Of a stretch of 64,000 nt of DNA, positions 3,790-47,397 are shown piece after piece. Numbering within the stretch: the stretch's first letter is position 1; every line of letters begins with the position of its first letter. The stretch is from an uncultured Actinomycetes bacterium. Lineage in GTDB: Bacteria; Actinomycetota; Acidimicrobiia; IMCC26256; DASPTH01. Location: contig CAVSEI010000011.1 in the NCBI GenBank assembly GCA_963726965.1, forward strand, positions 441,915 through 505,914, in the 5' to 3' direction. The translations under genes were made by a program, and so were the position numbers. The notes under the pieces were generated by a model that saw nothing but the letters and a program-made list of their open reading frames with translations, searched no databases and was not told the origin of the DNA.

Positions 3790-3804
3790 CTGACGACCCG
3801 TCAG
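3790..3804. promoter_or_regulatory. palindromic operator-like site CTGACG-ACC-CGTCAG (site 1 of 7)
   Basis: A perfect 6+3+6 dyad in the 57-bp gap between CoA-transferase stop 3830 and ACAD start 3772, about 17 nt upstream of that start codon. Confidence 0.6.
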
Positions 3805-3829
3805 TTTAGGCAGTGCGCCGGCGAGTGCA

Positions 3830-5074
3830 TCAACCAGTGACCACACCGTCGGCGATGAGTGCGTCGACGGTCTCGTCGTCGAGACCCAGCTCCTCGGCCA
3901 GGACCGAACGGGTGTGCTCGCCGACCCAGGGGATGCGCGACTCCGGCCCTTCGGCGACCTTCGACAACTTCACCGGGTTGCCCGGGATCACGACGGGTCG
4001 CTCGACGCCGTCGGTGCGCTCCATCTCGATCAGCATGTGCCGGGCTTCGAGGTGAGGGTCGGCCACGACCTCCCGCGCAGTCTGGACCGGTGCCGAAGCG
4101 ATCCCCGCCGCCGACAGCTTCTCCACCGCCTCCATCTTGGTCATGTTCCCGGCCCAGGCCTCGATGGCGGGTCGGAGCATGTCTTCGAGATGCGCGGCCC
4201 AGCCTTCCCGCGTCGCCAGGCGCGGGTCGTCGACCCACTCGGGCCGGCCGACGAGTTGCGCGATTCGCTCGAGTTGGTGCTCGCGCACGAGCTGCAGCAC
4301 GAACCATCCGTTGGACGCACGGAACGGATCGAGGATCGCGCTCCGCGGCTCGTTCAGCCGGTGCTTTCCGAGCGACTCGAAGTTGGTGACGATGTCGGTC
4401 ATGGCCACCGTGGCGTCATACATCGCGATGTCGACTCGCTGTCCCTCACCGGTTGCATCCCGGTGGCGGAGCGCGGCCAGGATGCCGATGGCGGCGAACA
4501 GGGCCGAGCTGATGTCGCCGAGGGCCCCGACGGGGTTGGGTCGGGGCGTTTCGTCGCCGACGAGGACGTAGTCGTAGATGCCCGACATCGCTTCCGCGAT
4601 CGACGCGTACGCGGGCCAGTCGGCGTACGGCGAACCGCTCGCCCCGAACCCCGACACCGAGGCGTAGATCACGGAAGGATGCACTGCCGCGACCGCTTCG
4701 TAGCCGAGACCCATCCGGTCGAGCGCACCCGATTTGAAGTTCTCGGCGAACACGTCGAACTTCGGCGCCAACGCGAGCACCAGTTCCCGACCCTTGTCGG
4801 CCTTGAGGTTCACGGTGACGCTGCGCTTCGAGAGGTTGTTGCGCAGGAACGTGGCGCCGATGAAGCGGCCTTCGGGGTCGTGCATGCCCGGCTGTGAACC
4901 TCGGCCGGACTCGCCGGCCGGCGCTTCGATCTTGACGACATCGGCACCGAGGCGGGCGAGGAGCTGGGTGGCGTAGGGGAGGGCCTGCATCTGTTCCAGG
5001 GCGAGCACCCGCACGCCATCGAGCGGCTTGCCGTACTTCGCCGCACCTTCGTTCGCCACGTCCCCGAGTCGCAC
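3830..5074 (-). CDS. family III CoA-transferase (CaiB/BaiF)
   Basis: ORF 3830..5215. The likely GTG start is at 5074 (or 5059), downstream of the permease stop at 5106. The sequence reads LDGVRVLALEQMQALPYATQLLARLGADVVKIEAPAGE...GQRVDIAMYDA...VGEHTRSVLAEELGLDDETVDALIADGVVTG. Confidence 0.85.
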   Translation of the reverse strand: MRLGDVANEGAAKYGKPLDGVRVLALEQMQALPYATQLLARLGADVVKIEAPAGESGRGSQPGMHDPEGRFIGATFLRNNLSKRSVTVNLKADKGRELVLALAPKFDVFAENFKSGALDRMGLGYEAVAAVHPSVIYASVSGFGASGSPYADWPAYASIAEAMSGIYDYVLVGDETPRPNPVGALGDISSALFAAIGILAALRHRDATGEGQRVDIAMYDATVAMTDIVTNFESLGKHRLNEPRSAILDPFRASNGWFVLQLVREHQLERIAQLVGRPEWVDDPRLATREGWAAHLEDMLRPAIEAWAGNMTKMEAVEKLSAAGIASAPVQTAREVVADPHLEARHMLIEMERTDGVERPVVIPGNPVKLSKVAEGPESRIPWVGEHTRSVLAEELGLDDETVDALIADGVVTG

Positions 5075-5105
5075 GGGTGCAGGGTACCTGTGACGCTTCG
5101 GGGAC

Positions 5106-7208
5106 TCAGGCTCCGGGTGCCGCGCTGACCACCGGTTGCTCGGTGACGTCGGGCGGCGAGGAGGGAGCGGGCGAGTCGTCGGACTCGGCGGCCCGCGCCG
5201 CCCGCTTCTGGGCACGCTTCTCGCGCTGTTCTTCGCCGACGGTCGGGATGATGCCCGCGGGCTGACGGCCGATGCCGATGCCCGCGAGGCCGGGGCCGAC
5301 GGCCGCCCACCACGAGAGGAACGTCGACGACGGGAAGAGCGCGGTCAACCACGTGAAGCCCTGGAGGAAGATGCCGCCGAGCAGGGCACCACTCACCACC
5401 GCGACGCCACCGACGACGAGCAGGAGCAGGTAGCCGAGGCCGGTCAGGACCTGGAAGTCCTGCGGGCTCGCCGAACCGAGCAGCGACCCGAAGAACGCGC
5501 CGGCGAGTCCGGCGATGGCGGCCGAGACCGCGAACACCGCGACCTTCGTCGCGAGCAGGTTCACTCCCAACGTCGTGCACGCGGCGGGGCTGTCGCGCAT
5601 GGCGACCAGCCGTCGCCCAAAGGTGCTGCGACGCATCGCGACCACGAGCATCCCCACGAGCGCGAACGCCAGCGCGGTGACGAACAGCAATCCCGCGTCG
5701 GCAGGAAAGTCGATTCCGAGGATGCTGAACGGCTGACTGGTGTTCCACCCGAAGAGCTTGAGCGGCGGGACGCGCACCGATGACGCGCCGAACACTTCGG
5801 GCTGGCCGAAGAACAAGATCTCCGCCATCGCCGCGAACGACATGGACGCCAGCGCGAGGTACAGACCTTTCAATCGCAGAGCAGGGAGCGCCATCAGGAC
5901 ACCGAAGGGGACGGTGAACAACGCAGCCGCGATGAGACCGACCGCGCTGCCGAGATCGGGACCCCATTTGTAGATGGCGAACGTTCCGGCACCCACGAAC
6001 GTGATCTGGGCGAGTGAGATCTGGCCCGACCAGCCGGTCAGCGGGACCAACGACAACATGATCAACCCGGTGCAGATCGCGAGGTCGAGGTTGCGGATGT
6101 TCTGGCGGTCGAACAGCGCCGCGAGCACGAAGACGACGACGAGCATCGCCGCCATGCCGACCGCCGCCCGACGCAGGGTCGGGACGCGTGCACTGATGGT
6201 GCGCATGGTTCGCTTGCCCTCGATGCGGGCCTCGGGGATGAAGAGCAGCGCGATGAACAGCACGATCGTCGGGATCGCCGGCGCTGCCGAGATCCAGCGA
6301 CCTCCCCACGTGAGGAAGTTGGACTGGAACGAGATCGACAACCCGATGATGATCCCGCCGACGTAGGTCAGCGGCAGGCTCTTCAGACGGCCGATGATCG
6401 CGGCCGCGAATGCGTCGATGATGAGCAGCGTGAGTACCTCGACGTTGAGCTGCGCGAGCTCCTCCGCGAGAAAGATGCCCGCGATCGCCGCCATCGACGA
6501 GCCGAGTGCCCACGAGACCATCGAGATGCGTCCGGGACGAGCGCCGTTGAGTGCGGCAAGCTCCCGGTTGTCGACCACGGCGCGCATGGCGATCCCGAGA
6601 CGGGTTCGGTACAGCACGAAGCGGAGCACCAGGGCGATGACGAGACCGGCCACGATGGTGATGAACCGATACCAGGGAATGAACGTGCTGCCGAGGTTGA
6701 ACCCTTCGCTCCCGAAGAACGTCGTGATGCTGGGCGGGTTGCCGGGATCCCACACCTTCAGGGCGAAGCCGATCATCGCGAGCATCAGCCCGATGGTCAC
6801 CACGAGCTGCGCGACGAGCGGCGCATCCCACATCCTCCGCATGAGGATGCGTTCGACCAGCGCGCCGAACAACGGGGCGGCCACCAGCACCGTGAGCCCC
6901 ACCGCGACCAGCGTGTTCCAACCGAGGTCGACCTTGAATTCCCAGTAGATGAACGCCATCAGCATCCCGATGGCACCCTGGGCGAAGTTGAAGATGCCCG
7001 ACGTCGTGTAGGTGACGACCAGACCGGCGGCCGCGACCGCGTAGATCGAACCCAGCGTCACGCCGACGATGAGGAAGAACAGGATCGAGTCGAACGTGAC
7101 CGGGTTGCCCGCCCACGACTCCTGGATCACGTAGCCCAGGAGGAGCGCGACGACGAGCGCGGAGATCAACCGTCCCCGGTTGCCCCGCGCCGTCAGTCGC
7201 TGGATCAT
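5106..7208 (-). CDS. branched-chain-amino-acid-type ABC transporter permease, fused LivH-LivM (two permease domains in one 700-aa protein)
   Basis: Full ORF of 700 aa, highly hydrophobic throughout. The N-terminal half is LivH-like (GSIYAVAAAGLVVTYTTSGIFNFAQGAIGML) and the second half is LivM-like (GWSGQISLAQITFVGAGTFA). It has an acidic/Pro-rich C-terminal tail and no Walker motifs. Confidence 0.85.
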   Translation of the reverse strand: MIQRLTARGNRGRLISALVVALLLGYVIQESWAGNPVTFDSILFFLIVGVTLGSIYAVAAAGLVVTYTTSGIFNFAQGAIGMLMAFIYWEFKVDLGWNTLVAVGLTVLVAAPLFGALVERILMRRMWDAPLVAQLVVTIGLMLAMIGFALKVWDPGNPPSITTFFGSEGFNLGSTFIPWYRFITIVAGLVIALVLRFVLYRTRLGIAMRAVVDNRELAALNGARPGRISMVSWALGSSMAAIAGIFLAEELAQLNVEVLTLLIIDAFAAAIIGRLKSLPLTYVGGIIIGLSISFQSNFLTWGGRWISAAPAIPTIVLFIALLFIPEARIEGKRTMRTISARVPTLRRAAVGMAAMLVVVFVLAALFDRQNIRNLDLAICTGLIMLSLVPLTGWSGQISLAQITFVGAGTFAIYKWGPDLGSAVGLIAAALFTVPFGVLMALPALRLKGLYLALASMSFAAMAEILFFGQPEVFGASSVRVPPLKLFGWNTSQPFSILGIDFPADAGLLFVTALAFALVGMLVVAMRRSTFGRRLVAMRDSPAACTTLGVNLLATKVAVFAVSAAIAGLAGAFFGSLLGSASPQDFQVLTGLGYLLLLVVGGVAVVSGALLGGIFLQGFTWLTALFPSSTFLSWWAAVGPGLAGIGIGRQPAGIIPTVGEEQREKRAQKRAARAAESDDSPAPSSPPDVTEQPVVSAAPGA

Positions 7209-7210
7209 CG

Positions 7211-8547
7211 TCAGCCTTGGAGCAAGTCGAGCTTCCGTTGGATCACGTTCTTCGGATTGCAGTCGAACGTGCCGGGCTTGCTCGGGAACACGCGAACGTA
7301 CTTCCCGTTCTTCACCTGCATCAGGACGTAGCAGTCGGTGATCTTCTTGGCCGCGAGGTCGGCCGTCGTCCCGTACATCCCGTCGGCGTCGAACTTGTGG
7401 ATGCCGTCCAGCGCGGTGAACAGCGCCTTGCGGGTCAGCCCGTCGTTCCCGGCGGTCTTGACCACCGAAGCCACGGCATCACGCAACAGCAGGCCGACGG
7501 CCCACGCGATCACCGAGTAGCCGTTGGCTTTGTCCTTGCCGACGTACTTCAGGAAGTTGGCCATCATCGGGTTGGACTTGGCCTCCTCGAACGGGAGGAA
7601 TCCGATCTGCACGTACTCGCCGTCGATGTCGGCCCCGCCCTGCGGGATGAAGGTCGGGTCGTAACACGTGGTGTTGCAGTCCCAGACCTTCACGCTGTTG
7701 ACGCCCTGGAGCTTGGCTTCCTTGCGGAGCTTGATCGTGCACCCGGGCGGGTTGCCGCACTGGGCGAGGGTCGAACTGTTCTGCTTGATGGCCTGGACGA
7801 CCGGCGTGTACGCGCTCTGGGGGACCGAACCGCCGAGCGGGAACTCACCGTCGAGCTTGATGCCGACCTGGTTGTCGTAGATGCCACCCTGGCCGACGAA
7901 CTGCGCGTCGCGTGCCGACTTGAGGTCGGCGGAGTCGATGAAGATCCCGTGGAGGCCCTTCCCGAACTTCGTCTTGTAGTAGTTCGCGCGCCCGACGTTC
8001 GCCTGGTAGGTCTGCGGGTGCTGGTCCTTCGTCGAGCAGACGATCGCCGGCGGGTTCACCGCGTACGTCGTCTTCGAGCACTGTTGCGCCACGCTGGTGT
8101 AGAGCGTCGCCAGGTCGGGAAGGCCCGTGGTCGCGCCGGTGGAGTCCTTGCACCCCTCGACGTCGTCGACGTTGGCGAGGAACAGCGCGGCCGCGACGAC
8201 GGCGAAGTCGTCCGAACAGGACGTGATCATCGCGTTCGGGACTCGGAGCCACTGAGCTTGGAGTCGTGGAAGTCGACGACGACCTTGCGCCCCGCGAGCC
8301 CGCCCTGCGCGTTGATGTACTTGGCGAAGCCGTTGAACCCGTCGACGACACCCTGGAACAGACCCGGTGCGAGCGGGGTGTCGACGTCGGCGACCACCGC
8401 GATCTTGAGCTCGGTCGGCGTGACCCCGACGTCGGACGACTTCGTGGGCTTGGCCGCCCGCTCGGTCCCGGCGCTCGCGGTGACCGCGCTGCTCGCCATG
8501 ACGATCGCCACGCCCAGTACGAGCGCAACCCAACGGAACCTCTTCAT
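7211..8547 (-). pseudogene. ABC transporter substrate-binding protein (LivK family), one apparent frameshift
   Basis: The signal peptide and N-terminus lie in ORF 8227..8547 (MKRFRWVALVLGVAIVMASSAVTASAG...KIAVVADVDTPLAPG...GRKVVVDFHDSKL). The remainder is in the 7211.. frame from MITSCSDDFAVVAAALF onward. The frames join near 8230-8240; adding one A would give ...SESRNAMITSCSDDF. Confidence 0.8.
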
Positions 8548-8620
8548 CGGTGTCCCCCCGGTGTCCGATGTTTCCCTGGCGCCGTGTCTGCGGGCACGGC
8601 GGCGACACCCTAACTGGGAT

Positions 8621-8635
8621 CTGACGCCTCGTCAG
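8621..8635. promoter_or_regulatory. palindromic operator-like site CTGACG-CCT-CGTCAG (site 2 of 7)
   Basis: A perfect dyad in the 118-bp divergent intergenic region between SBP start 8547 (-) and the HMGCS-like start 8666 (+). Confidence 0.6.
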
Positions 8636-8665
8636 GTCGCCCGAGGGTTCAGGTACCCTGCAGCC

Positions 8666-10069
8666 ATGCGCGGAATCGTTTCCTGGGCCGCCTACCTGCC
8701 GTACCGAAGGCTTGATCGCACGCAGATCGCCCCGTTCGTCGGTCAGGGTGGGGGGAAGGGCACCCGCACGGTGGCGTCCTTCGACGAGGACTCCACCACG
8801 ATGGGGGTCGAAGCGGCGCGCCTCGCCCTCCGGGACCGCGACGTGACGCCGGCGCAGCTGTTGTTCGCCACCTCCTTCCCCGCGTACGCCGACAAGACCA
8901 ACGCCAGCGCGATCCATGCCGCCCTGCGTCTGCCGGCGAGCGCGCCGGCATTCGACCTGGGTGCATCGGTGCGCTCTGCGGTCGGCGGCCTCCTGCTCGG
9001 ACTGACCGGTACCGTCGACGCCGCCCTCGTGATCGGCGCCGACGTCCGCACCGGGCTGCCCGGGAGCGGTGAGGAGGCAGCCGGTGGTGACGCCGCGGCC
9101 GCATTCGTCGTGGGCGACGAGTCCGCGGGTCCACTCGTGGCCGAGTTCTTGGGATCGGCGAGCGTCACGGACGAATTCGTCGAGCGCTGGCGAGCGCCCG
9201 GAGAACTCCGGACCCGGGTGTGGGACGAGAAGTTCAGCGAGGTCACGTACGTCCCGTTGGGGGTGCAGGCATGGAACGCCGCGCTCGAATCGGCGGGGCT
9301 CACCGCGGGCGATGTCGCGGCCGCGGCGGTTGCGGCCCCTGCGCAGCGCGTGGCGCGCGCGGTCGGCGGCAAGCTCGACGGCGTGCACGTGATCGACGAT
9401 CTTTCGACGGTCGTCGGCAACTGCGCGGCTGCACAACCAGGCCTGTTGTTGGCGGCGTTGCTCGAACAGGCCGAATCCGGTCAGGTGCTGGCTCTCGTGG
9501 TCCTCGCTGACGGTGCTGACGTGTTGTTGTTCCGCGCCACCGATGGGTTGGCCTCGTACCGGCCTGCCCGCACCATCGCCGAGCAAGTCGCGGCCGGCGC
9601 GGCGCTGCCGTACGGCAAGTTCCTGGCGTGGCGCGGCATGTTGCCCGTCGAACCCCCCCGGCGCCCCGAGCCGCAACGCGTGTCGGCGACGGCCGCGGCG
9701 CGCAGCGAGGACTGGAAGTTCGGTTTTGTCGGGTCGAAGGAACGCGACACGGGAGTGGTGCACCTGCCGCCGGCGCGCGTGTCTCGCGATGGCGAGCACA
9801 CCGACGAGATGGAACCGGTCGCGCTCGCCGACGTCCGCGGCACCGTGGTCACGTTCACCATCGATCGCATGGCGTACTCACCCAGCCCACCCGTGGTGTT
9901 CGCGGTCGTGGACTTCGACGGCGGCGGGCGGCTCCCCCTCGAGCTCACCGACGCTGACGCCGACGAGATCGAGATCGGTCAACGGGTGGAGATGACGTTC
10001 CGTCGCCTCTTCACCGCCGACGGGATCGTCAACTACTTCTGGAAAGGGAGGTTGATGCGCGATGGCTAG
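8666..10069 (+). CDS. HMG-CoA-synthase-like (thiolase-fold) protein fused to a C-terminal DUF35/OB-fold domain; catalytic residues apparently substituted
   Basis: ATG 8666 is in frame inside ORF 7217..10069. The motifs VASFDEDSTTMGVEAARLAL, LVIGADVRTGLPGSGEEAAGGDAAAAFVV, DEFVERWRAP and VVGNCAAAQPGLLLAALL follow the HMGCS family pattern. The C-terminal VRGTVVTFTIDRMAYSPSPPVVFAVVDFDGGGRLPLELTD...IGQRVEMTF is a DUF35 OB-fold. The protein has only one Cys in total. Confidence 0.75.
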   Translation: MRGIVSWAAYLPYRRLDRTQIAPFVGQGGGKGTRTVASFDEDSTTMGVEAARLALRDRDVTPAQLLFATSFPAYADKTNASAIHAALRLPASAPAFDLGASVRSAVGGLLLGLTGTVDAALVIGADVRTGLPGSGEEAAGGDAAAAFVVGDESAGPLVAEFLGSASVTDEFVERWRAPGELRTRVWDEKFSEVTYVPLGVQAWNAALESAGLTAGDVAAAAVAAPAQRVARAVGGKLDGVHVIDDLSTVVGNCAAAQPGLLLAALLEQAESGQVLALVVLADGADVLLFRATDGLASYRPARTIAEQVAAGAALPYGKFLAWRGMLPVEPPRRPEPQRVSATAAARSEDWKFGFVGSKERDTGVVHLPPARVSRDGEHTDEMEPVALADVRGTVVTFTIDRMAYSPSPPVVFAVVDFDGGGRLPLELTDADADEIEIGQRVEMTFRRLFTADGIVNYFWKGRLMRDG

Positions 10070-11259
10070 CCACGGCATCAAGGATCGCGTCGCCATCGTC
10101 GGGATGGGGTGCACCAACTTCGTCGAGCACTGGGGCAAAGGGCTCGACGACCTGGTGATCGAAGCAGCCAACGAGGCCTATGCCGCCGCCGGGATGGACA
10201 AGCCTGATGTCGACGCGTACTGGCTCGGTACCGCCAACGGTGGTATGAGCGGCATCACGCTGGCGCGTCCGCTGCAGTTGGTCGACAAGCCCGTCACCCG
10301 GGTCGAGAACTACTGCGCGACGGGCGCGGAGTCGTTGCGGCAGGCCGCGTACGCGGTTGCATCCGGCGCCTACGACACCGCGATGGCGATCGGAGTCGAG
10401 AAGACGAAGGACGGCGGCTTCCAGGGGCTCAACGCGGTGGCCCCACCGAACGACGGGACCGGGCGCACGCTCACCGCCGCCGCGATGTTCTCGATGGTCG
10501 CGCCGGCCTACGCCGCGAAGTACGGCGTCGACCCCGACAAGATGCGTGAGGCGATGGCCCACGTGGCGTGGAAGAACCACTTCAACGGCGCGCGGAATTC
10601 ACGCCGCGCAGTTCCGGCGCGAGGTGTCGATCGAGACCATCTGCAACTCGCCGAAGATGGCAGGCGACCTGCGGGTGTTCGATTGCGCGGGCGTCGCCGA
10701 CGGTTCCGCGGCGGCAATCGTGTGTCGCGCCGAAGATGCGCACAAGTACACCGACACCCCCATCTTCGTGAAGGCGCTGTCGTTCATCGCCGGGAACGGC
10801 AGCGGCGTCACCGACCCGAGCTACGACTACACGAACTTCCCCGAGATCGCGGCGACCGCGCGCGACGCGTACGCCCAAGCGGGGATCACCGATCCACGTC
10901 GGGAGTTCGCACTCGCCGAGGTCCATGACTGCTTCACCATCACCGAGCTCGTGCTCATGGAGGACCTGGGGTTTTCCGAGCGGGGCGCCGTGTGGCGCGA
11001 TGAGCTCGACGGCGTCTACGACCTCGACGGCGAGCTGCCGGTCAACCCGGATGGCGGCTTGAAGTCGTTCGGCCACCCGGTCGGCGCGTCGGGATTGCGC
11101 ATGATGTTCGAGGCCTGGTTGCAGCTGCGGGGTGAAGCGCCGCCCGAGCGTCAGATCGAGGCGGCGAAGCCGGGCGGTGACCGCGGGTTGGCGCTGACCC
11201 ACAACCTCGGCGGCTACCCGGGCGAGATGGTCAGCTTCGTCTCGATCCTGGGGCGGTAG
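10062..11259 (+). pseudogene. SCP-x/Ltp-type thiolase-like protein (nonspecific lipid-transfer-protein thiolase family), one apparent frameshift
   Basis: ORF 10062..10928 (MASHGIKDRVAIVGMGCTNF...VENYCATGAESLRQAAYAVASG...AWKNHFNGARN) continues in ORF 10357..11259 (AAQFRREVSIETICNSPKMAGDLRVFDCAGVADGSAAAIV...NPDGGLKSFGHPVGASGLRMM). The frames join near 10595-10600 (+1 nt). The start overlaps the upstream gene by 8 nt. Confidence 0.8.
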
Positions 11260-11262
11260 ACC

Positions 11263-12000: not shown

Positions 12001-12028
12001 TCCCGAGCGCTCGTAGATCCCGACTGCG

Positions 12029-12949: not shown

Positions 12950-12980
12950 CGATGTAGTAGACCACAATCTGCCGGAGAAT

Positions 12981-12995
12981 CTGAAGGTCCGTCAG
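12981..12995. promoter_or_regulatory. palindromic operator-like site CTGAAG-GTC-CGTCAG (site 3 of 7, one arm mismatch)
   Basis: Lies in the 100-bp divergent region between epimerase start 12949 (-) and ACAD start 13050 (+). It is flanked T...A, giving TCTGAAGGTCCGTCAGA. Confidence 0.55.
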
Positions 12996-12998
12996 AAA

Positions 12999-13034
12999 CA
13001 CCTCCCTCACCTGAAGCACCTCCCTCACCCGAAG
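12999..13034 (+). repeat. 18-bp direct tandem repeat x2 (CACCTCCCTCACCTGAAG / CACCTCCCTCACCCGAAG), with a partial third unit following
   Basis: Read directly from the sequence, 17/18 identical. It starts 4 nt after operator-like site 3 and ends 15 nt before ATG 13050. Confidence 0.85.
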
Positions 13035-13049
13035 CACACCGGAGTTCTC

Positions 13050-36164: not shown

Positions 36165-36180
36165 ATACGCTCCCGACCGC

Positions 36181-38336: not shown

Positions 38337-38362
38337 CCGGGGTTTTTGGGGAGGCGAGTGAC

Positions 38363-39264: not shown

Positions 39265-39275
39265 CAGGTCGTCAG
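39261..39275. promoter_or_regulatory. palindromic operator-like site CTGACA-GGT-CGTCAG (site 6 of 7)
   Basis: Overlaps SDR stop 39262..39264 and lies about 30 nt upstream of the TetR GTG at 39306. Confidence 0.6.
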
Positions 39276-39305
39276 ATTCGTCCGGACTCAGGTAGCGTCA
39301 CCGAC

Positions 39306-39944: not shown

Positions 39945-39960
39945 CGAGAGCGAGGATCCC

Positions 39961-41166
39961 ATGGCACGCGACATCCCCCGGTTCATCAGCGTCGACGATC
40001 ACGTGGTCGAGCCGCCGCATCTGTTCGAGCGGTGGTTGCCGAAGAAGTTCGCCGACGATCCGCGCGCGCCGCACGTCGAGCGTCGGGGGATCGGCAAGAT
40101 GGAGTACAAGGGCGGCACGACGTACGAGATCGAATGGGACGACAGCCAGCCGAAGTCCGACACCTGGTTCTACGAGGAACTGGTGGCTCCCCACAAACGG
40201 CATGTTGCGTCGGTGGGATTCCCACGCGACGAGATGACGTTGTCGCCGATCACGTACGACGAGATGCGGCCCGGGTGTTACGAGCCCGCGGCGCGGCTCG
40301 AGGACATGGACGTCGACCACGTCGAGGCGTCGTTGTGCTTCCCGACCTTCCCGCGGTTCTGTGGGCAGACGTTCTCGGAGGCACAGGACAAAGACCTCGC
40401 GTTCGCGTGCGTCCGTGCGTACAACGACTGGATGGTCGAGGAGTGGTGTGGTGACTCCGGTGGCCGGTTGATCCCGCTGTGCCTCGTGCCCTTGTGGGAC
40501 GTCGAACTCGCGGCCGCCGAGGTGCGCCACAATGCGGCGCGGGGCGTCACCGCGGTGGCGTTCTCCGAGATCCCGTCGAAGCTCGGCCTGCCGACCTTGC
40601 ACTCGGGCTACTGGGAGCCGTTCTTCCACGCGTGCGCGGAGACGCAGACACTGGTGTGCATGCACATCGGGTCGTCGTCGCAGATGCCGGCGACGTCGGC
40701 CGACGCCCCCCCGGCGGTCGCGGCCACGCTGAGTTTCGGCAACGCGATGTCGTCGATGACGGACTATCTGTTCTCCGGTGTGCTCGTCCGCAACCCGGAT
40801 CTGAAGCTCGCGTACAGCGAAGGTCAGATCGGGTGGATCCCCTACATCCTCGAACGGGCCGACGACGTGTGGGTCGAGCACCGCGCGTGGGGCGGCGTAC
40901 AGGGTGTGATGACCGAACCGCCGTCGTTCTACTACCACCGTCAGGTCTTCGGTTGCTTCTTCCGCGACCGCCACGGGCTCGAGTCGCTGCACCGCATCGG
41001 GGTCGACAACGTCACCTTCGAGACCGACTACCCGCACACCGACTCGACCTGGCCGCACACCAGGAAGCTGTTCGAGGAGCAGGTCGCGGACCTCGACGAC
41101 GAGACCGTCTACAAGCTCGCCCGGGGCAACGCCATCCGTATGCTCCGTCTGCCACTCGACCGCTGA
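39961..41166 (+). CDS. amidohydrolase_2 family protein
   Basis: Full ORF of 401 aa. The sequence reads FISVDDHVVEPPHLFERWLP...DHVEASLCFPTFPRFCGQTF...CMHIGSSSQMP...FETDYPHTDSTWPH. By eye it is roughly half identical to the protein at 51150..52355. Confidence 0.85.
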   Translation: MARDIPRFISVDDHVVEPPHLFERWLPKKFADDPRAPHVERRGIGKMEYKGGTTYEIEWDDSQPKSDTWFYEELVAPHKRHVASVGFPRDEMTLSPITYDEMRPGCYEPAARLEDMDVDHVEASLCFPTFPRFCGQTFSEAQDKDLAFACVRAYNDWMVEEWCGDSGGRLIPLCLVPLWDVELAAAEVRHNAARGVTAVAFSEIPSKLGLPTLHSGYWEPFFHACAETQTLVCMHIGSSSQMPATSADAPPAVAATLSFGNAMSSMTDYLFSGVLVRNPDLKLAYSEGQIGWIPYILERADDVWVEHRAWGGVQGVMTEPPSFYYHRQVFGCFFRDRHGLESLHRIGVDNVTFETDYPHTDSTWPHTRKLFEEQVADLDDETVYKLARGNAIRMLRLPLDR

Positions 41167-41200
41167 TCCGCTGATCCGAATCACCCAGGGGGACACCGCG

Positions 41201-42125
41201 ATGCCGCTCGACGCCGATTTCCTGGAGCTCGCCGCCCGCGTCCGCAATTGGGGCCGTTGGGGACCCGACGACGAGCTGGGCACGCTCAACCTGATCGATG
41301 ACGCAGCAGTGAAGCGCGGTGCCGCGTGCGTGCAGAACGGAAAGACGTTCTCGCTCGCGATCCCGCTCGACGACAACGGCCCGCAGATCGGGTTCATCCC
41401 CGGCCGCTACAACCCGATCCACAAGGTCTTCCAGATCAACGAGGTCACCATCGGTGATCCTGACGGCACCCGGTTCTCCGACGATCAGATGGACCTCGCG
41501 CTGCAGGCGTGCACGCACTGGGACGCGCTCTCCCACTCGAGCTACGGCGGGAACCTCTGGAACGGGCATCCGGCCGACGCCATCACGGAGACGGGCGCTT
41601 CCAAGTGTGGCATCGGTCTGGTGAAGACGCTGGTGACGCGCGGCGTGCTGCTCGACATCGCGCGGCTCAAAGGCGTCGACGTGATCGAGGCCGGTACGCC
41701 GTTCACCGGCGCGGACCTCGACGCCGCGTGCGAGGCCGGTGGCGTCACCGTCGAACCCGGCGATGTCGTACTCCTGCGGACCGGCGCGATGTCACTGTTC
41801 CTCGCCGGTGACCGGGAGGGGTACGCCTCGACGAACGCGGGACCGTCGCTGCAGAGCGTCGAGTGGTTCCACGACCACGACGTCGCCGCCGTCGCCACCG
41901 ACAACCCGACGTTCGAGCACGTCGACTTCGAACGATCCGTGCCGCTCCCCGTCCACGCGATCCACCTCGTCGACATGGGGATGACCCAAGGGCAGAACTG
42001 GAACCTGGACGAACTTGCGGCTGACTGCGCTGTCCGACGGGCGCTACACCTTCCTGCTCTCGGCCACGCCCGAGCCGGTCACCGGAGGCACCGGCGCTCC
42101 CGTCGTCCCCGTCGCGGTGAAGTAG
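41201..42125 (+). pseudogene. putative cyclase / kynurenine-formamidase-like family protein, one apparent frameshift near the 3' end
   Basis: The first ~275 codons of ORF 41201..43006 give NWGRWGPDDELGTLNLI...ACTHWDALSHSSYGG...GDVVLLRTG...VATDNPTFEH. The C-terminus LSDGRYTFLLSATPEPVTGGTGAPVVPVAVK-TAG (42123..42125) is in the +1 frame. The frames join near 42026-42030. Confidence 0.75.
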
Positions 42126-43006
42126 ATGAAGTTCATCGCCAACATCTCGATGTGCGACGCGTCGTTCTACGTGCCCCTCGCGCAAGCGGCCGAAGCTGCG
42201 GGGTTCGACACGATCGCGGTCCCCGACAGCATCGCCTACCCCGCGAGTCGTCGTCGACGTATCCGTACAACTTCGACGGCACCCGCGAGTTCCTCGAGAA
42301 CAAGCCGTTCATCGAACCCGGGATCGCCATGGCGGCGATGGGCGCGGTCACGAGCACGATCGAGTTCCACACGTTCGTGCTCAAGACCCCCATCCGCCAC
42401 CCGGTCATCTACGCCAAGGAGGCGACTTCGCTGGCCGTCATCACCGGCGGGCGTTTCGTCCTGGGCGTCGGTTCCAGCCCGTGGCCCGACGACTACGAGA
42501 TCGTCGGCCTCCCCTGGGAGGGCCGTGGCCGACGGTTCGACGAGTGCATCGAGATCGTGCGCGGCCTGGCCGCGGGCGGGTACTTCGAGTACCACGGTGA
42601 GTTCTACGACTTCCCCGCGATCAAGATGGAACCGGTGCCGACGAAGCCGATCCCCGTCCTGATCGGTGGACACGGCGACGCCAACCTGCGCCGCGCGGCC
42701 CGCCTGGGCGACGGGTGGATGGGCGCCGGCGGCATGATCGACGATCTGATCCCGATGATCGACCGGATGAACGACCTGCGCCGCGACTACGGACGCGAGC
42801 AGGTGCCGTTCGCGATCTACGCGACGGCAGGCGAGTCGTTCACCGCCGACGGGATCAAGCGGCTCGAGGACCTGGGGGTCACGCACACCGCGGGCGGGTT
42901 CGGACGGTTCAACCCGTACGGGCTCGAGACCGACCCGGAGACGCTGCAGGAGAAGATCGACAACCTCAACCGCTACGCCGACGAAGTGATCTCCGCCATT
43001 CGTTGA
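42126..43006 (+). pseudogene. LLM-class flavin/F420-dependent oxidoreductase, one apparent frameshift
   Basis: ATG 42126 comes directly after the TAG of the previous gene and gives MKFIANISMCDASFYVPLAQAAEAAGFDTIAVPDSIAYP (ORF 42126..42662). The gene continues in the 41201..43006 frame as RESSSTYPYNFDGTREFLENKPFIEPGIAMAAMGAVTSTIEF...GRFVLGVGSSPWPDDYEIVGLPWEGRGRRFDECIEIV...PVLIGGHGDANLRRAARLGDGWMG. The frames join near 42237-42245. Confidence 0.75.
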
Positions 43007-43017
43007 CCGGTCTGCCG

Positions 43018-43233
43018 TCAGGTGCGGGCGACCAGGCGCGCGGAGGCGGCGAGCAACCCGGCGCCGAGCAGGACGCCGCCGACCGCGATCGGCCACCCGC
43101 CGTGGAACTGCAGCGGTGCGTGCGCGTCCATCACCGCGAGCAGCGTCACCACCGCCGGGCCGATCAGGAGGAACCCGGCGACGAGCGCGCAGAGCATCGC
43201 GACGACGAACCGGATCATCCCCATCGCCCGCAC
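43018..43233 (-). CDS. small hypothetical membrane protein (2 TM)
   Basis: Full ORF of 71 aa with strong GC3 bias. The sequence is MRAMGMIRFVVAMLCALVAGFLLIGPAVVTLLAV...WPIAVGGVLLGAGLLAASARL. Confidence 0.5.
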   Translation of the reverse strand: MRAMGMIRFVVAMLCALVAGFLLIGPAVVTLLAVMDAHAPLQFHGGWPIAVGGVLLGAGLLAASARLVART

Positions 43234-43306
43234 CCCCAGCCCCGCTTCCCGGGGGAAGGTTAGACCGCCGGCTCGGTCCGTCGCCTGGAGGCGGCGCGAG
43301 TCGGGC

Positions 43307-44710
43307 TCACGGCGCGACGGTGCGGCCCTTGGTGCTCACCGGGACGAGACAGATCGTGTCGAGTGGTGGCGCCGGCAGCTTGCACGGATAGGTGGCTCGG
43401 CTCTCGAACGCGGTGGTCGGTGTCGTCTTCTTGTCGATGAACACCACGACCGGCGCGCCTCCGATGCCGCCGATCGGGTCGGGCGGGAGCTTCCGCAACG
43501 CGGCGACGAACGAATCCTTGGTCAGCTTGTCGCCCGCGTCGTAGAGCGCGCGCGCCACCATGCGCATGTTGGTGCACGAGAGCCCGACGACACCCCACTT
43601 CGTGTACCCCTCGGTGTCGGGCTTGAACGAGTCACCGGTCTTGGTGTTCTTGGCGTACACGTCGTTGCACATCACGCCGATCGGAGGCGGACCGAAACCG
43701 GGGAGCCGCCAATCGCCGGTCACGGTGGCCGAGACGAGCGTCGCTCCCTTGTAGTAGTCGGCCACCGACTTCCCGCCGACCTGGAGCACCTTGCTCTGTA
43801 CGAGGTCGGTTCCGAGCGCGTTGTACGAGGACTCGTACACCTTCACCGTCATCGCGGCGCGCTTCATCTCGTTCATGTACGCGGGCAGGGTCGTCGCCGT
43901 GAGGACGGGAATCACGACGTCGGGCTTCGCGCTCGCCAACTTCATGACCGACTGCGGGATCGGCTGCGTACACACGATGTTGCCCTGGCACGGCATCACG
44001 TCGTACGCGACGACGTTGACGCCCTTCTTCTTCAGCGGAGCCACCAGCGCGCGCTCGATCACGTCGGCCTGGTCAGGAAGATCGGTGGCCGCGATCGCGA
44101 CGCGCTTGCCCTTCAGCGCACCGCTGGCCAAGAGGTCCTTCGCGAGCAGACGAAGCTGCCCGTCGGCCGACGGTCCGTACGACGCCAGCCGCCCGTTGGT
44201 GGACGCGTACTCGGAATCGGGCGCGCCGCCGACGTACACCAGCGGCGTCTTGTGGTCACCGGCCACGCAGATCGGCCCGGTGCCCGTGAGCGTGTTCGAG
44301 TTCACGACGACGAACGCCTTGTCGTCTTCGGTCGCGGCGATGCACGCGGCGTCGCGACTGGCCGGGTTCGTCGGGTCGTACTCCTCGTTCTGGAGCACGA
44401 CCTTCCGGCCGCGGATGCCACCGCACACGTTGATCTGGTCGGTGAAGACCTGGAACATGTCGTTGACGTCCCCGACCGGCAGCGAGAAGCCGAGCGGCTC
44501 GTACTTCTCGAGCTGCGATCGGATCTGGACGACCTTGATCGTGCCCTTGGTCGGCGCCGGCCCGGTCTTGGTGCAGAAACGATCGGTGGGCGCGAACGGA
44601 TTGGTGGTCGCGGCTTCGGCGCGATGGCTCGCTGGGGCGACGAGCGCAAGCGCGACCGCAGTCACGCCCACCGCCACCAGCGAACCGACCCCCCTGTTCA
44701 CGGGGTGCAC
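43307..44710 (-). CDS. ABC transporter substrate-binding protein (LivK/periplasmic-binding type I family), orphan
   Basis: Full ORF of 467 aa with a signal-like N-terminus (GVGSLVAVGVTAVALALVAPASHRAEA). The body resembles the SBP at 7211..8547 (several conserved Cys, and GKRVAIAATDLPDQ). No permease or ATPase gene is adjacent. Confidence 0.8.
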   Translation of the reverse strand: MHPVNRGVGSLVAVGVTAVALALVAPASHRAEAATTNPFAPTDRFCTKTGPAPTKGTIKVVQIRSQLEKYEPLGFSLPVGDVNDMFQVFTDQINVCGGIRGRKVVLQNEEYDPTNPASRDAACIAATEDDKAFVVVNSNTLTGTGPICVAGDHKTPLVYVGGAPDSEYASTNGRLASYGPSADGQLRLLAKDLLASGALKGKRVAIAATDLPDQADVIERALVAPLKKKGVNVVAYDVMPCQGNIVCTQPIPQSVMKLASAKPDVVIPVLTATTLPAYMNEMKRAAMTVKVYESSYNALGTDLVQSKVLQVGGKSVADYYKGATLVSATVTGDWRLPGFGPPPIGVMCNDVYAKNTKTGDSFKPDTEGYTKWGVVGLSCTNMRMVARALYDAGDKLTKDSFVAALRKLPPDPIGGIGGAPVVVFIDKKTTPTTAFESRATYPCKLPAPPLDTICLVPVSTKGRTVAP

Positions 44711-44728
44711 GCTAGATGCTCGCTCCGC

Positions 44729-45574
44729 TCACGCGTCGTCGCGCGGCTCCGCGGTCCGGTAGTCGCCGAACGGCGTGTCCCGCTTGGTGAGGGTGTCTCG
44801 GAGACCGGTGGCCCGGATGTCGGCCACGAACTTCTCCATGGTCTCGGTGTGGGTCGCGAGGGCACTGAGCTCGGTGCCGGCCCGGATCGACGACCGCAGC
44901 CCCATGACTTCCATGGCGCGGTGCACGGTCCGCTTGTTGATCTGCACCAGGTCGCTCGGGATCTGGGCGATCCGGCTCGCGATCGCGAGCACGTGCTCCT
45001 CGAGCTCCTCGACCGGGTACGCCCGGTTCGCCCACCCGAGCTGGGCGGCTTCCACCCCGGAGAACGAGTCGCCGGTGAGCATCGACTCCATGCCCGCCCG
45101 CATGCCGAACAGCCACGCGTGGTACTGCATGTCCGGCGTGCCGAAGCGCACCGCGGGGTAACCGATCTTGGCGTCCTCGGCGACGTACACGAGGTCGCAC
45201 CCGGTCGCGAGCTCGCTCCCACCGGCCAGGCAGTACCCGTGTACCTGCGCGATCACCGGCTTGGCGAGATCCCAGATGCTCATCCAGCCGTTGGTGACGC
45301 CGCGCATGTACGAGCCCTCGCCCTCCGAGTTGTAGTCGAGGGGCTCGCCCTGCGCGTTGGGATCGCCGGAGAGGTCGTAGCCCGCGGAGAAGCACTTCCC
45401 CGCGCCCCGGATGACGGTGACCCGCACCTCGGGGTCGCGATCGAACTCACGCGTCGCGACCAGGATCTCGCGCCGGAGGGTCGCGTTGAGCGCGTTGCGC
45501 TTCTCCGGACGGTTCAGGGTGATGCGACGTACCGCGGGCGCGGGATCGTCGACCAGGATCAGGGAAGCACTCAC
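44729..45574 (-). CDS. enoyl-CoA hydratase/isomerase (crotonase) family protein
   Basis: Full ORF of 281 aa with a GTG start. The sequence reads VRRITLNRPEKRNALNATL...VIRGAGKCFSAGYDLS...KPVIAQVHGYCLAGGSELATGCDLVYVAEDAKIGYPAVRFG. Confidence 0.9.
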   Translation of the reverse strand: MSASLILVDDPAPAVRRITLNRPEKRNALNATLRREILVATREFDRDPEVRVTVIRGAGKCFSAGYDLSGDPNAQGEPLDYNSEGEGSYMRGVTNGWMSIWDLAKPVIAQVHGYCLAGGSELATGCDLVYVAEDAKIGYPAVRFGTPDMQYHAWLFGMRAGMESMLTGDSFSGVEAAQLGWANRAYPVEELEEHVLAIASRIAQIPSDLVQINKRTVHRAMEVMGLRSSIRAGTELSALATHTETMEKFVADIRATGLRDTLTKRDTPFGDYRTAEPRDDA

Positions 45575-45617
45575 ACAGGTCTCCTCACTCAGTGGTCGAC
45601 TCCGCTTCGTCTCCGGG

Positions 45618-47340
45618 CTAACGGGCGGTGACGGTCTCGGTGTCGCGTCCGGAACGCAGGAGCACGCCCGGGGTTGCTCCTGTTGCTACTCCGTGCTCGA
45701 CGATGGCGGTGCCACCGACGAGCACGCGTTCGATGCCCTTCGACCCCGCGGTGAGCCGAGCCGAGTCGCCGGGCAGGTCGGCGACCAGCGTGGCATCGCC
45801 GGCGTCGACCGTGTCGGGATCGAACACCACGATGTCGGCGATCGCGCCGTCGCGCAGCACGCCGCGGTCGCGCAGCCCGAACAACGCGGCCGGCGCGCTG
45901 GTGATGAGCTGCACCGCGCGCTCGAGCGACACGAGTTGCCGACCGCGGAGGCAGTCGGCGAGGAATCGGGTCGTATAGGGCGCGCCGCACATGCGGTCGA
46001 GGTGCGCGCCGGCGTCGGACCCGCCGATCAACGCCCGCGGGTCGTTCCACACGTCACGCCGGAGATCCCACGACGAGCCGTCGTCGTCCTGGGGGATGGG
46101 CCACAGGACGGTGCGCAGCTCGTCGGCGATGACGATGTCGAGCAAGGTGCCGAAGTTCGACTGGCCGCGCTCCTGCGCGATCTCGCGCACCATGCGACCC
46201 TTCAACGTCTGGTTCTCGGGCGCGTACACGTCGCCCAGTCGGTAGTCACCGAAGTCGGCGAGGCGGCGGAACACGCCGGCCGCCGGGGACTGCGACTGCT
46301 CGAGCATCTTCAGGCGGGTCTCCGGATCGCGCAGCCGGGCGATGCGTTCGGGCACCGCGACGCTGAGCACGTCGCTCCATCCCGGGATGAGCCAGATCCC
46401 GCAGAAGTTCAGGAAGCTCATGTTCATCGGCACCTGGACCGGCATGGTGAGCGCGACCAGGCGACCACCCAGCTCGTGCGCGCGGTCGCCGGCCGAGAGT
46501 TGGCGGGGGACACGTTCGGGCTCACGGGCGTCGACGGTGAGCACGTTCCAGTTGAGCGGACGGTTCGCCGCCGCGCTCACCTGGCCGAGCAGCTCGATCT
46601 CGTCGTCGGAGAACTGGTCGAGACAACCCTGGACGATGCCTTCGAGTGTCGTACCGGGGTGGGCGCCGGTTTCCTCGCTCATCGCGAGGAGCTCTTCGGG
46701 AGTCGCCCACCGGCTGGCCACCGGTTCGCCGTCGCCGTCGCTGTGCGACGAGGACTGGGTGAACGAGAAGCCGAGCGCACCGGCGTCGAGCGCCCGGCCG
46801 AGCTCGGCCCGCATCTCGGCGATCTGCTCCGGCGTCGCGACCTTTCCGATCGCGTCGGTACCCATGACGTAGCGACGGATGGCGCAGTGCCCGGCGAGGA
46901 ACCCGGCGTTGACCGAGATCGAACCCTCGAACCGGTCGAGGTATTCGGCGAACGTCTCCCACTTCCAGTCGACGCCCTGTTCCAGCGCCGGAAGGGGCAT
47001 GCCCTCGACCCGCGCCATCATGCGGCGGAGGTAGTCGGCATCGCCGTCGCGCAGGGGAGCGAGGGTGAACCCGCAGTTGCCGCCGATCACCGTGGTGACG
47101 CCGTGGACGCTCGACGGGCTCGCGGTCGGGTCCCACAGGAGCTGCGCGTCGTAGTGCGTGTGCGGATCGACGAAACCGGGCGTGACGACCAGCCCGGTGG
47201 CGTCGACGACGTTGGCTGCGGGCTCGTCGATGGCGCCGATGGCCACGATGCGACCGTCGCGCGATTCCGACATCGGCGACGACGCCGGGCGCCCCGGTGC
47301 CGTCGATCACGGTGCCGCCCTTGATGATCTCGTCGAGCAT
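45618..47340 (-). pseudogene. metal-dependent amidohydrolase, N-acyl-D-amino-acid deacylase (D-aminoacylase)-like family; one apparent frameshift near the 5' end
   Basis: ATG 47340 gives MLDEIIKGGTVIDGTGAPGVVADVGI. After a frame change in a (GC)n run near 47257-47264 the gene enters ORF 45618..47273, reading RDGRIVAIGAIDEPAANVVDATGLVVTPGFVDPHTHYDAQLLWDP...TTVIGGNCGFTLAP. Confidence 0.8.
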
Positions 47341-47382
47341 GGCCCCTCGTCCCCGCGGCCGTCCCCACCGCGCCGAAGAAGT

Positions 47383-47397
47383 CTGACGGACCGTCAG
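47383..47397. promoter_or_regulatory. palindromic operator-like site CTGACG-GAC-CGTCAG (site 7 of 7, perfect)
   Basis: The site TCTGACGGACCGTCAGA lies in the 161-bp divergent region between amidohydrolase start 47340 (-) and ALDH start 47502 (+). Confidence 0.6.

Follow-up and report, generated by a model that had tools for sequence, protein, structure and literature searches.

A palindrome repeated at promoters of an acyl-CoA catabolic locus in an uncultured Acidimicrobiia bacterium, a candidate operator of a TetR-family regulator

The locus, its genes and the seven sites

We analysed a stretch of 64,000 nucleotides from an uncultured bacterium of the class Acidimicrobiia (hereafter, the window), in which a palindrome of the type CTGACG-N3-CGTCAG occurs seven times at the heads of gene strings encoding acyl-CoA dehydrogenases (ACADs) and associated enzyme families, one copy being situated directly before a gene of a TetR-family regulator. 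The motif is real, is confined to promoter regions and is under evolutionary constraint; both this TetR subfamily and these enzyme families are associated with it. From the association between the motif and the regulator, we consider it probable that aTCTGACG-N3-CGTCAGAt is the operator of the TetR protein encoded at 39306-39944, acting across the locus as an autoregulated repressor.

The gene map was built by codon-position GC analysis (the GC content of the window is 66-70%) together with Pfam, NCBIfam and PDB-sequence searches. The putative regulon (Table 1) comprises five ACADs or ACAD pairs, family-III CoA-transferases, pairs of DUF35 and thiolase-like proteins, MaoC and enoyl-CoA hydratase (ECH, crotonase) hydratases, short-chain dehydrogenases/reductases (SDRs), an aldehyde dehydrogenase (ALDH), an AMP-ligase, two transport sets with substrate-binding proteins (SBPs), and three dinuclear oxygenases similar to DitZ and PtmU3. 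By family assignment, these units are predicted to encode modules of CoA-dependent beta-oxidation of bulky acids. The heteromeric ACAD pairs are nearest to the PimC/PimD and IpdE2 models of NCBIfam, with scores below the cut-off, and among solved structures PDB 4X28 is nearest to the ACAD at 36181; we take it to be the M. tuberculosis steroid side-chain enzyme ChsE4-ChsE5.

Amidohydrolase-related dinuclear oxygenases are characterized by N-terminal D-x-H and C-terminal D-x-P-H-x-D/E metal-binding motifs (PMC13154177), and three Amidohydro_2 proteins of the window have both of them (Table 1). The one encoded beside the TetR gene matches the diterpenoid hydroxylase DitZ (8UYR) with E 9e-63 and PtmU3 with E 7e-31. 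Judging by the motifs and the matches, these three proteins are probably oxygenases rather than hydrolases, and the similarity to DitZ and PtmU3 makes a terpenoid- or steroid-like substrate plausible.

Table 1. Coordinates of the sites and other features of the window. PWM, position weight matrix; HMGCS, hydroxymethylglutaryl-CoA synthase; LLM, luciferase-like monooxygenase; TetR#2, the second TetR gene of the window.
Feature	Position	Strand	Sequence or motif	Match and score	Context
Site 1	3790..3804		aTCTGACGACCCGTCAGt	exact match; PWM 27.4 bits	in the 57-nt gap between a CoA-transferase stop (3830) and an ACAD GTG (3772), both on the - strand; 17 nt from the GTG
-10-like hexamer at site 1	3808-3803	-	TAAACT		overlaps the edge of site 1
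Site 2	8621..8635		aTCTGACGCCTCGTCAGg	exact match; PWM 25.7 bits	divergent gap: SBP/permease/CoA-transferase string (-, ATG 8547) and HMGCS-like-DUF35/thiolase-like/SDR string (+, ATG 8666)
-10-like hexamer at site 2	8654-8659		TACCCT		ends 7 nt ahead of ATG 8666
Site 3	12981..12995		aTCTGAAGGTCCGTCAGa	one mismatch; PWM 23.0 bits	divergent gap: epimerase (-, ATG 12948) and ACAD pair (+, ATG 13050); starts refined from sequence and translations
Site 4 (weakest)	20503..20517		tTCTGACACCCAGTCAGa	two mismatches; PWM 18.5 bits, rank 7 in the window	covers GTG 20509 of a DUF35/thiolase-like/thiolase string (-); 26 nt upstream of amidase GTG 20544 (+)
-10-like hexamer at site 4	20521-20516	-	TAGTCT		ends 7 nt ahead of GTG 20509
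Site 5	36150..36164		gTCTGACGGGTCATCAGa	one mismatch; PWM 23.6 bits	16 nt upstream of ATG 36181, head of an ACAD-ACAD-SDR-TetR-oxygenase-cyclase/LLM string (+); divergent from the AMP-ligase
-10-like hexamer at site 5	36166..36171	+	TACGCT		2 nt past site 5, 10 nt ahead of ACAD ATG 36181
Site 6	39261..39275		cCTGACAGGTCGTCAGa	one mismatch; PWM 24.5 bits	30 nt upstream of TetR GTG 39306; includes the TGA stop of the preceding SDR gene; candidate autoregulatory site
-10-like hexamer at site 6	39293-39298		TAGCGT		conserved; ends 8 nt ahead of GTG 39306
TetR-family regulator	39306..39944	+			212 aa; proposed operator binder
Site 7	47383..47397		gTCTGACGGACCGTCAGa	exact match; PWM 27.9 bits	divergent gap: amidohydrolase/ECH/SBP string (-, ATG ~47340) and ALDH/CoA-transferase/SDR/oxygenase/ECH/TetR#2 string (+, ATG 47502)
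-10-like hexamer at site 7	47402-47407		TAGCCT		starts 5 nt past site 7
Putative regulon	429..53707				the seven sites stand at the heads of up to 12 transcription units, ~50 kb; operon membership from orientation and short gaps
Amidohydro_2 protein, beside TetR	39961-41166		DDH/DYPHTD		both dinuclear-oxygenase motifs
Amidohydro_2 protein	21976-23211		DCH/DYPHKE		both dinuclear-oxygenase motifs
Amidohydro_2 protein	51150-52355		DDH/DYPHAD		both dinuclear-oxygenase motifs
SBP gene	7211-8547				frameshifted
Thiolase-like gene	10062-11259				frameshifted
Amidase gene	20544-21979				frameshifted
ALDH gene	30997-32465				frameshifted, three pieces
AMP-ligase gene	34894-36413				frameshifted
SDR gene	38363-39264				frameshifted
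Amidohydrolase gene	45618-47340				frameshifted
Second ALDH gene	47502-48975				frameshifted

The seven 15-mers had been listed in an earlier, sequence-only reading of the window. Their coordinates and sequences all match the letters of the window, and the flank counts given there, a T on the left of six sites out of seven and an A on the right of five, hold as well. That reading placed every copy at a promoter or a start codon, and we indeed observe all seven within the intergenic DNA, which constitutes about 7.4% of the window (chance probability ~1e-8). Five sites are located in divergent gaps and two ahead of co-directional genes, the latter including site 1, where the preceding CoA-transferase gene is of family III; from the side of the gaps, five of the seven divergent gaps in the region 1-53.7 kb hold a site. 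The gene contexts proposed earlier for the sites at 3790, 8621, 12981, 20503, 39261 and 47383 agree with our map. In the case of the site at 36150, the position 16 nt upstream of the ACAD gene stood, and the supposed overlap with the ATG of the synthetase is only one possibility, as this gene has three in-frame ATGs (36161, 36131, 36122).

Occurrence of the motif relative to chance

Exact copies of CTGACG-N3-CGTCAG occur three times in the window, versus 0.00 expected from 100 dinucleotide-preserving shuffles, and with at most one mismatch allowed there are six copies versus 0.89 expected, the maximum over the shuffles being four. We also scanned the 64-kb window with a 19-nt PWM trained on 143 sites from other genomes, the window sites being excluded. 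The top seven positions are the seven sites, with scores of 18.5-27.9 bits; in 1000 shuffles, the mean number of hits of at least 18 bits is 0.017, and no shuffle has more than one, versus seven in the window. The eighth-best hit, at 37383 (12.8 bits, within the ACAD gene 37371-38336), was set aside as a chance match, since 0.275 hits of at least 12 bits are expected.

The flanks of the seven copies show no relatedness to each other, hence the copies are not duplicated cassettes. Besides the CTGACG-N3-CGTCAG type, no other recurring perfect 6+N+6 palindrome is present in the intergenic DNA of the window, and a second recurring palindrome that could belong to TetR#2 or to the site-less region at 53-64 kb was sought in the window and not found.

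Loci selected by the regulator and contigs selected by the motif

Using an alignment of 15 homologs of the TetR protein, we fetched 80 genomic loci of up to +/-10 kb each (1.27 Mb in total), by means of peptide patterns taken from two stretches, the helix-turn-helix and the N-terminal arm. The identity of the TetR proteins in these loci to the one from the window is 88-92% in three close metagenome-assembled genomes (MAGs), 40-55% in many MAGs of Acidimicrobiia and other Actinomycetota, and 37-40% in 24 Streptomyces species; several loci come from MAGs labelled Myxococcota or Deltaproteobacteria. Some of the taxon labels of the MAGs, such as "Bifidobacterium breve" and "Spirochaetales", are doubtful and probably reflect binning errors.

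In the 80 loci, the 15-mer is found in 45 exact copies versus 0.1 expected, an approximately 450-fold excess, and in 102 copies with one mismatch versus 5.35 expected; a site of at least 16 bits is present in 55 loci. The sequence-only reading had suggested a comparison of the coding and non-coding densities of the pattern, and this went in its favour: 144 of the 147 sites in these related loci are outside called genes, where the crude calls leave 19% of the bases uncalled. By gap type, 95 sites are in divergent, 47 in tandem and 2 in convergent gaps, versus 235, 630 and 242 gaps in the background. The consensus across the loci is aTCTGACG-N3-CGTCAGAt, and positions outside the search pattern show a bias as well, with A at position -1 (0.69) and T at position 0 (0.60) in DNA with about 69% GC. 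In approximately 15 non-Streptomyces loci a site is situated 25-230 nt upstream of the TetR gene itself, and among the genes flanking sites in the non-Streptomyces loci, TetR is the commonest classified family (13 cases).

Strong sites in Streptomyces often form tandem pairs 24-27 bp apart. In one of these loci (L070, from S. lannensis JCM 16578), all sites are intergenic: between an AMP-ligase gene and a thiolase-like/DUF35/ECH operon, between an ACAD gene and an SCP-x-type thiolase gene, upstream of a gene for a monooxygenase similar to flavin monooxygenases (FMOs), and upstream of an NDP-forming acyl-CoA synthetase gene. The TetR protein is the only regulator common to the window and this locus, the other regulator in the latter being an Lrp/AsnC protein beside a LysE exporter. 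Upstream of the TetR orthologs of Streptomyces (L070, L072, L059 of S. kronopolitis CA-126529, and others, positions ~9945-10012) there is an invariant block of about 55 bp with TTTGCA, TAAGCT and CTGACGGCATGACAG. The last element is a two-mismatch version of the operator that overlaps the ATG of the TetR gene, and it is the sole site at the TetR start there; from its sequence and position, it may be a weak autoregulatory site. In another locus (L013), the near-motif CCCGACGAGGCGTCAGC occurs three times, at 4274, 4363 and 4452, with an exact period of 89 bp, which points to a tandem repeat with no relation to the promoter sites.

Vice versa, we scanned a metagenome collection with ATCTGACGNNNCGTCAGAT alone and obtained at least 120 contigs (median length 4.3 kb, median GC 0.69). 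Among the contigs listed, 81 of 120 encode the same enzyme families as the window within 2.5 kb of the site. The gene 5' ends adjoining the site among these listed contigs belong to ACADs (28), DitZ-like Amidohydro_2 proteins (19), HMGCS-like-DUF35 proteins (7), family-III CoA-transferases (7), SDRs (7) and D-aminoacylase-like amidohydrolases (5). Thus, taken with the loci fetched by TetR homology, the motif predicts the gene families, and the gene families together with the TetR gene predict the motif.

Phylogenetic footprint

The block consisting of the site, two ACAD genes (ACADa and ACADb), an optional SDR gene, and the TetR, oxygenase and cyclase/LLM genes is syntenic in seven loci (L001-L003, L006, L008, L021, L052). 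We aligned the region upstream of ACADa from seven genomes, where the identity of the TetR proteins is 43-93%. The left flank has no conserved column, the core TCTGACGG..[..]TCAGA is invariant, and in the hexamer following the core the T, the A and the final T are invariant (TACGCT, TAATGT, TAGAGT, TACTCT, TACGGT), after which the sequences diverge up to the ATG. L021 has an insertion of 20 nt between the operator and the hexamer. The sequence-only reading had named conservation in relatives as a check; the operator is retained upstream of the orthologous ACAD gene in all seven genomes while the flanks are randomised, and on a wider scale the motif recurs around TetR homologs as distant as those of Streptomyces. 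The conservation between Acidimicrobiia and Streptomyces is firm, and for Myxococcota it is tentative.

Two further sites could be compared between close relatives. At site 7, the block GTCTGACGGAnCGTCAGATTGTAGCCTTG is common to the window and L002, with indels in both flanks. Site 6 is identical in L001-L003, and the downstream TAGCGT is conserved though the length of the spacer varies by up to 68 nt. In the closest relative, L001, the counterpart of the site at 36150 (L001 6845-6885) carries a 6-nt insertion that breaks the left half-site, the right half and the -10 box being intact; this is either natural decay of the operator or an assembly error.

Position of the sites relative to promoters

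Hexamers of the -10-like form TANNNT end 7-10 nt ahead of four start codons, 8666, 20509, 36181 and 39306 (Table 1), a distance typical of leaderless or short-leader transcripts in actinobacteria. As the hexamer at site 5 is so close to the ATG of the ACAD gene, the transcript of the latter probably has no leader or a very short one. The operator overlaps the -10-like hexamer at sites 1, 4 and 7 (in the last case, that of the minus-strand promoter), is located 2-5 nt upstream of it at sites 5 and 7, and at sites 2 and 6 lies 18-19 nt upstream of it, over the -35 region or beside it. Over all loci, TANNNT clusters 2-11 nt past the operator edge in about 70 of 306 flanks, versus 0-1 per offset farther out. 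Between site 3 and the ATG at 13050 we also observed a tandem direct repeat, CACCTCCCTCACC(T/C)GAAG, in two copies at 12998-13035.

The last 10 kb of the window (53708-64000) have no copy of the operator, yet encode an Amidohydro_2 protein, a thiolase-like protein, two family-III CoA-transferases, a SnoaL-like protein and an ACAD; presumably, these genes are controlled in another way.

At least eight genes of the window are interrupted by frameshifts, past which the Pfam domain goes on in a different frame (Table 1). These look like uncorrected long-read indel errors rather than pseudogenes, the closest relatives being long-contig MAGs. Because of the many frameshifts, the start codons and operon boundaries are approximate, and the same frameshifts, or else the absence of this genome from the index, would explain why the exact-protein look-up of the window TetR and of the neighbouring oxygenase gave no match.

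The TetR-family regulator

The protein encoded at 39306-39944 is a TetR-family regulator by both its domains: TetR_N (PF00440) is found at residues 24-62 with E 2.6e-9 and 37.2 bits (cut-off 24), and TetR_C_38 (PF19352) at residues 88-210 with E 1.3e-23. All hits of NCBIfam models to it are far under the cut-offs, so there is no family-level name. The AlphaFold2 model is all-helical, with pLDDT of 79-96 in the C-terminal domain, and the top Foldseek matches of the model are TetR-family structures, EthR being the first. There are more than 2,200 homologs with E <= 1e-10, the nearest ones, of up to 93% identity, coming from metagenome assemblies; the few named close homologs are from Acidimicrobiia MAGs.

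In the alignment of 15 homologs (48-93% identity), SPATFYQYF, a stretch of the helix-turn-helix, and DGRVIGxRA, in the N-terminal arm, are invariant. The arm, A-x-DGRVIG-x-RA-xx-TRR at residues 7-22, precedes the helix-turn-helix and is unusual among TetR proteins. In SimR, an N-terminal arm contacts the minor groove; by analogy, the invariant arm here may add minor-groove contacts with DNA, which is speculation.

An autoregulatory operator is common, though not universal, in the TetR family. Here, the TetR gene has a candidate operator at its own promoter, site 6, situated 30 nt upstream of its GTG, and site 5 is at the head of its operon. The sequence-only reading preferred this protein as the binder to TetR#2 (53093-53707), and the associations point the same way, as the motif follows homologs of the former, and homologs of TetR#2 were found neither in the 80 TetR-fetched loci nor among the motif-fetched contigs listed (at least 120). 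The TetR#2 gene overlaps the stop codon of the upstream ECH gene (52356-53096) and ends the all-plus string behind site 7. Because of this position, TetR#2 may itself be a target of the regulon, in a cascade, rather than an unrelated gene.

Alternative explanations

Several observations weigh against the assignment of the motif to the TetR protein as an operator, or limit its reach. Since the loci were retrieved by patterns from the helix-turn-helix and the arm, the invariance of these stretches within the loci is partly a result of selection, and the raw counts exaggerate how many events were independent, many of the Streptomyces sites being orthologous to one another. Of the 80 TetR loci, 25 lack a strong site within +/-10 kb, and in three of these, from Streptomyces, the helix-turn-helix is identical. 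Among the contigs listed, the TetR subfamily is encoded on 6 of 120, and on 3 of 34 of those with the length of at least 8 kb, a low yield that can be explained by the contigs being short and by there being roughly one TetR gene per 5-7 sites. The DNA-binding domain is poorly resolved in the AlphaFold model (pLDDT <50 at residues 36-60), so the model provides no structural argument on DNA recognition and no basis for ligand or DNA contacts. As for individual sites, the conservation of site 6 is confounded by its overlap with the coding region of the C-terminus of the SDR, and a TANNNT box near site 3 was sought in the gap and not found. With at most two mismatches allowed, the window holds ten matches versus 10.25 expected, hence the site at 20503 cannot be justified by the pattern count alone; its PWM score of 18.5 bits, on the other hand, exceeds 14.4 bits, the 95th percentile of the null maxima.

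The motif could be a genuine operator bound by another protein (TetR#2, a global or unlinked transcription factor, or a Crp-like protein), with the TetR protein of 39306 being only one of the regulated genes. The link to this TetR protein is correlative, the 25 site-less loci and the difference between 81 listed contigs with the enzymes and 6 with the TetR gene could be read in this way, and a site before the regulator gene is equally expected if the regulator is a mere target. We nevertheless consider this alternative unlikely, as TetR#2 has no homolog in the 80 loci or on the contigs listed, the TetR protein is the only regulator in common with the Streptomyces locus L070, and loci picked solely by TetR homology, from Acidimicrobiia, MAGs labelled Myxococcota and Streptomyces, hold about 450 times the expected number of exact sites. 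Less likely still is that the TetR protein does bind the motif, acting as an activator or a dual regulator. TetR-family activators exist, an example being XNR_0706 of Streptomyces albus, which positively controls beta-oxidation genes (PMC11584518), and the operators at sites 2 and 6, with their location 18-19 nt upstream of the -10-like box near the -35 region, could suit an activator. The other sites for which a box was found (1, 4, 5 and 7), however, overlap it, lie within 5 nt of it, or cover the start point or the start codon, and the TANNNT peak at 2-11 nt from the operator edge corresponds to the geometry of steric repression, as in KstR.

The palindrome might also function as a nucleic-acid hairpin, that is, a repetitive extragenic palindromic (REP)-like element, a terminator or attenuator, or a stem-loop of the 5' untranslated region, as the three perfect copies can form a stem of 6-9 bp with a 3-nt loop (z-scores from -1.5 to -2.8). 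The four imperfect copies, though, fold no better than shuffles; 102 sites carry uncompensated single mismatches, and compensatory double changes (3 of 55) are at the chance level; of the 147 sites, just two are in convergent gaps; a T-tract is absent after the sites, and the window has no Rfam match. Moreover, several sites are upstream of the -10 box, hence would not be transcribed. Mainly on the grounds of the uncompensated changes, the folding of imperfect copies and the lack of Rfam matches in the window, we rejected the hairpin, which is very improbable. A chance, compositional or duplication artefact, such as copied promoter cassettes, has the least probability of all, a nearly negligible one: the frequency of the pattern with up to two mismatches is that of chance, but the three exact copies and the seven hits of at least 18 bits are not matched by the shuffles, the flanks of the seven copies are mutually unrelated, and the motif is kept across genomes with fully diverged flanks. 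The shuffle counts, the enrichment in TetR loci and the footprint together refute this explanation.

Proposed mechanism and significance

Returning to the operator of an autoregulated TetR repressor as the preferred explanation, we suggest the following scheme, in which physical binding, the repressor sign, dimer stoichiometry, transcription starts and the ligand are what we infer from the sequences. A TetR dimer would place one helix-turn-helix on each TCTGACG half-site, the centres of the half-sites being about 10 bp apart. The operator would abut or overlap the -10 box, sit in the spacer between the -10 and -35 boxes, or cover the -35 region or the start point of short-leader or leaderless promoters, and a repressor bound at such positions would keep RNA polymerase off; the distances between the operator and TANNNT fit steric repression, as for KstR. 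In a divergent gap, a single dimer would be able to shut both directions. One signal would thereby govern, through the seven operators, up to 12 transcription units (about 50 kb), including the operon of the regulator itself, with site 5 at its head and site 6 directly before the TetR gene. With the products of these units, bulky (steroid- or diterpenoid-like) carboxylates would be processed in a CoA-dependent pathway resembling beta-oxidation, and the effector, most plausibly an acyl-CoA or a free acid of the pathway, would bind to the C-terminal domain, releasing the repressor.

Our search of the literature for the motif strings, for PF19352/TetR_C_38, and for TetR proteins associated with DUF35 or dehydroabietic acid yielded no description of this operator, and within the searchable literature the regulator-operator pair is apparently undescribed. 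A broader proposition, which we put forward tentatively and rate at slightly less than even, is that the operator and the PF19352 TetR protein form an undescribed, deeply conserved regulon of Acidimicrobiia, Streptomyces and possibly Myxococcota, marking a widespread uncharacterised soil pathway of CoA-dependent degradation of polycyclic terpenoid- or steroid-like acids via ACAD pairs similar to PimCD and ChsE, Bbs-like DUF35-thiolase modules, family-III CoA-transferases and diiron oxygenases similar to DitZ and PtmU3. If it is true, the motif could be used as a genomic tag for delimiting that pathway and finding the inducer, and experiments could start from Streptomyces, which can be cultivated.

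In concept, what we propose is a TetR repressor system of the standard type, and it leaves the understanding of such systems unchanged. What the analysis provides is a regulatory map that can be tested: in a catabolic supercluster of uncultured Acidimicrobiia, about 50 kb long, seven operators and one candidate repressor are assigned to up to 12 units. The same pair is found in cultivable Streptomyces and is common in soil metagenomes, so validation there would extend to a large uncharacterised TetR subfamily. The motif also ties together alpha/beta ACADs, DitZ-like dinuclear oxygenases, CoA-transferases and DUF35-thiolase pairs, which may aid pathway discovery and the design of biosensors.

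Comparison with known TetR systems

In the TetR/tetO system, a homodimer binds to a dyad of about 15 bp, with two helix-turn-helix motifs in successive major grooves; the ligand causes release, the promoters are divergent, and the repressor controls its own gene. By analogy, the system proposed here would share the dimer on a ~15-bp dyad, release by the ligand, divergent promoters and self-regulation, but in place of a single efflux gene and tetracycline it would involve many catabolic operons.

The nearest solved protein both by profile (E 4e-11) and by Foldseek (about 21% identity, TM ~0.55-0.6) is EthR (Rv3855) of M. tuberculosis, which is nevertheless very distant, the Foldseek E-values being only 1e-3 to 1e-2, about 3e-3 for EthR. 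EthR, too, is an actinobacterial TetR repressor of oxidative catabolic or activating enzymes: it controls the flavin monooxygenase EthA, and one of the sites in Streptomyces L070 is upstream of the gene of the FMO-like monooxygenase. EthR acts at a single locus, where a multimer of it occupies an operator about 55 bp long, in contrast to the compact single dyad repeated at many promoters here.

With KstR, the resemblance is in the architecture of the regulon. Among the 38 PDB sequences that match the TetR family profile (E <= 1e-3) there are no KstR or KstR2 entries, judging by the codes 3MNL, 5CW8, 5CXI, 5UA1, 4W97 and 2IBD, which we presume to be theirs. By this match list of the profile, the TetR protein of 39306-39944 is set apart from KstR and KstR2 (Rv3574, Rv3557c), and we regard it as not orthologous to them. 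Like the candidate regulator here, KstR (Rv3574) of Mycobacterium and Rhodococcus is an autoregulated TetR repressor with a short palindrome in many intergenic, often divergent, regions of a lipid/steroid supercluster (PMC1995591), and the KstR regulon likewise has alpha/beta ACAD pairs, DUF35/Ltp-type thiolase-like proteins, MaoC hydratases and CoA ligases. The KstR motif, TnnAACnnGTTnnA, partly overlaps the -10 region (PMC1995591), and it differs from ours in both the half-site and the spacer, in accordance with what the sequence-only reading had stated: it has 14 bp with a 2-nt centre, whereas TCTGACG-N3-CGTCAGA spans 17-19 bp with a 3-nt centre. Furthermore, here the C-terminal domain is PF19352, and the hosts are Acidimicrobiia and Streptomyces rather than Mycobacteriales.

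XNR_0706 of S. albus, considered as a described counterpart, was rejected, as it binds the unrelated TGCGGGGCGC-N35-GCCCCGCGCT (PMC11584518). The operator of SAV7471, a TetR protein of Streptomyces avermitilis, is given in a quotation in the same paper as GAGAACN3CGTTCTC (PMC11584518); in this quoted form it shares with ours the layout of about 6 nt, N3 and about 6 nt, and differs in the sequence of the half-site. BkaR (Rv2506), finally, has a different core, GTTA(N)T(N4)A(N)TAAC, and a small local regulon of 10-12 genes, but it is likewise an autoregulatory dimeric TetR repressor with a palindromic operator and a divergent acyl-CoA catabolic operon, and the two copies of its motif in the divergent gap (PMC3920632) can be compared with the tandem pairs of sites in Streptomyces.

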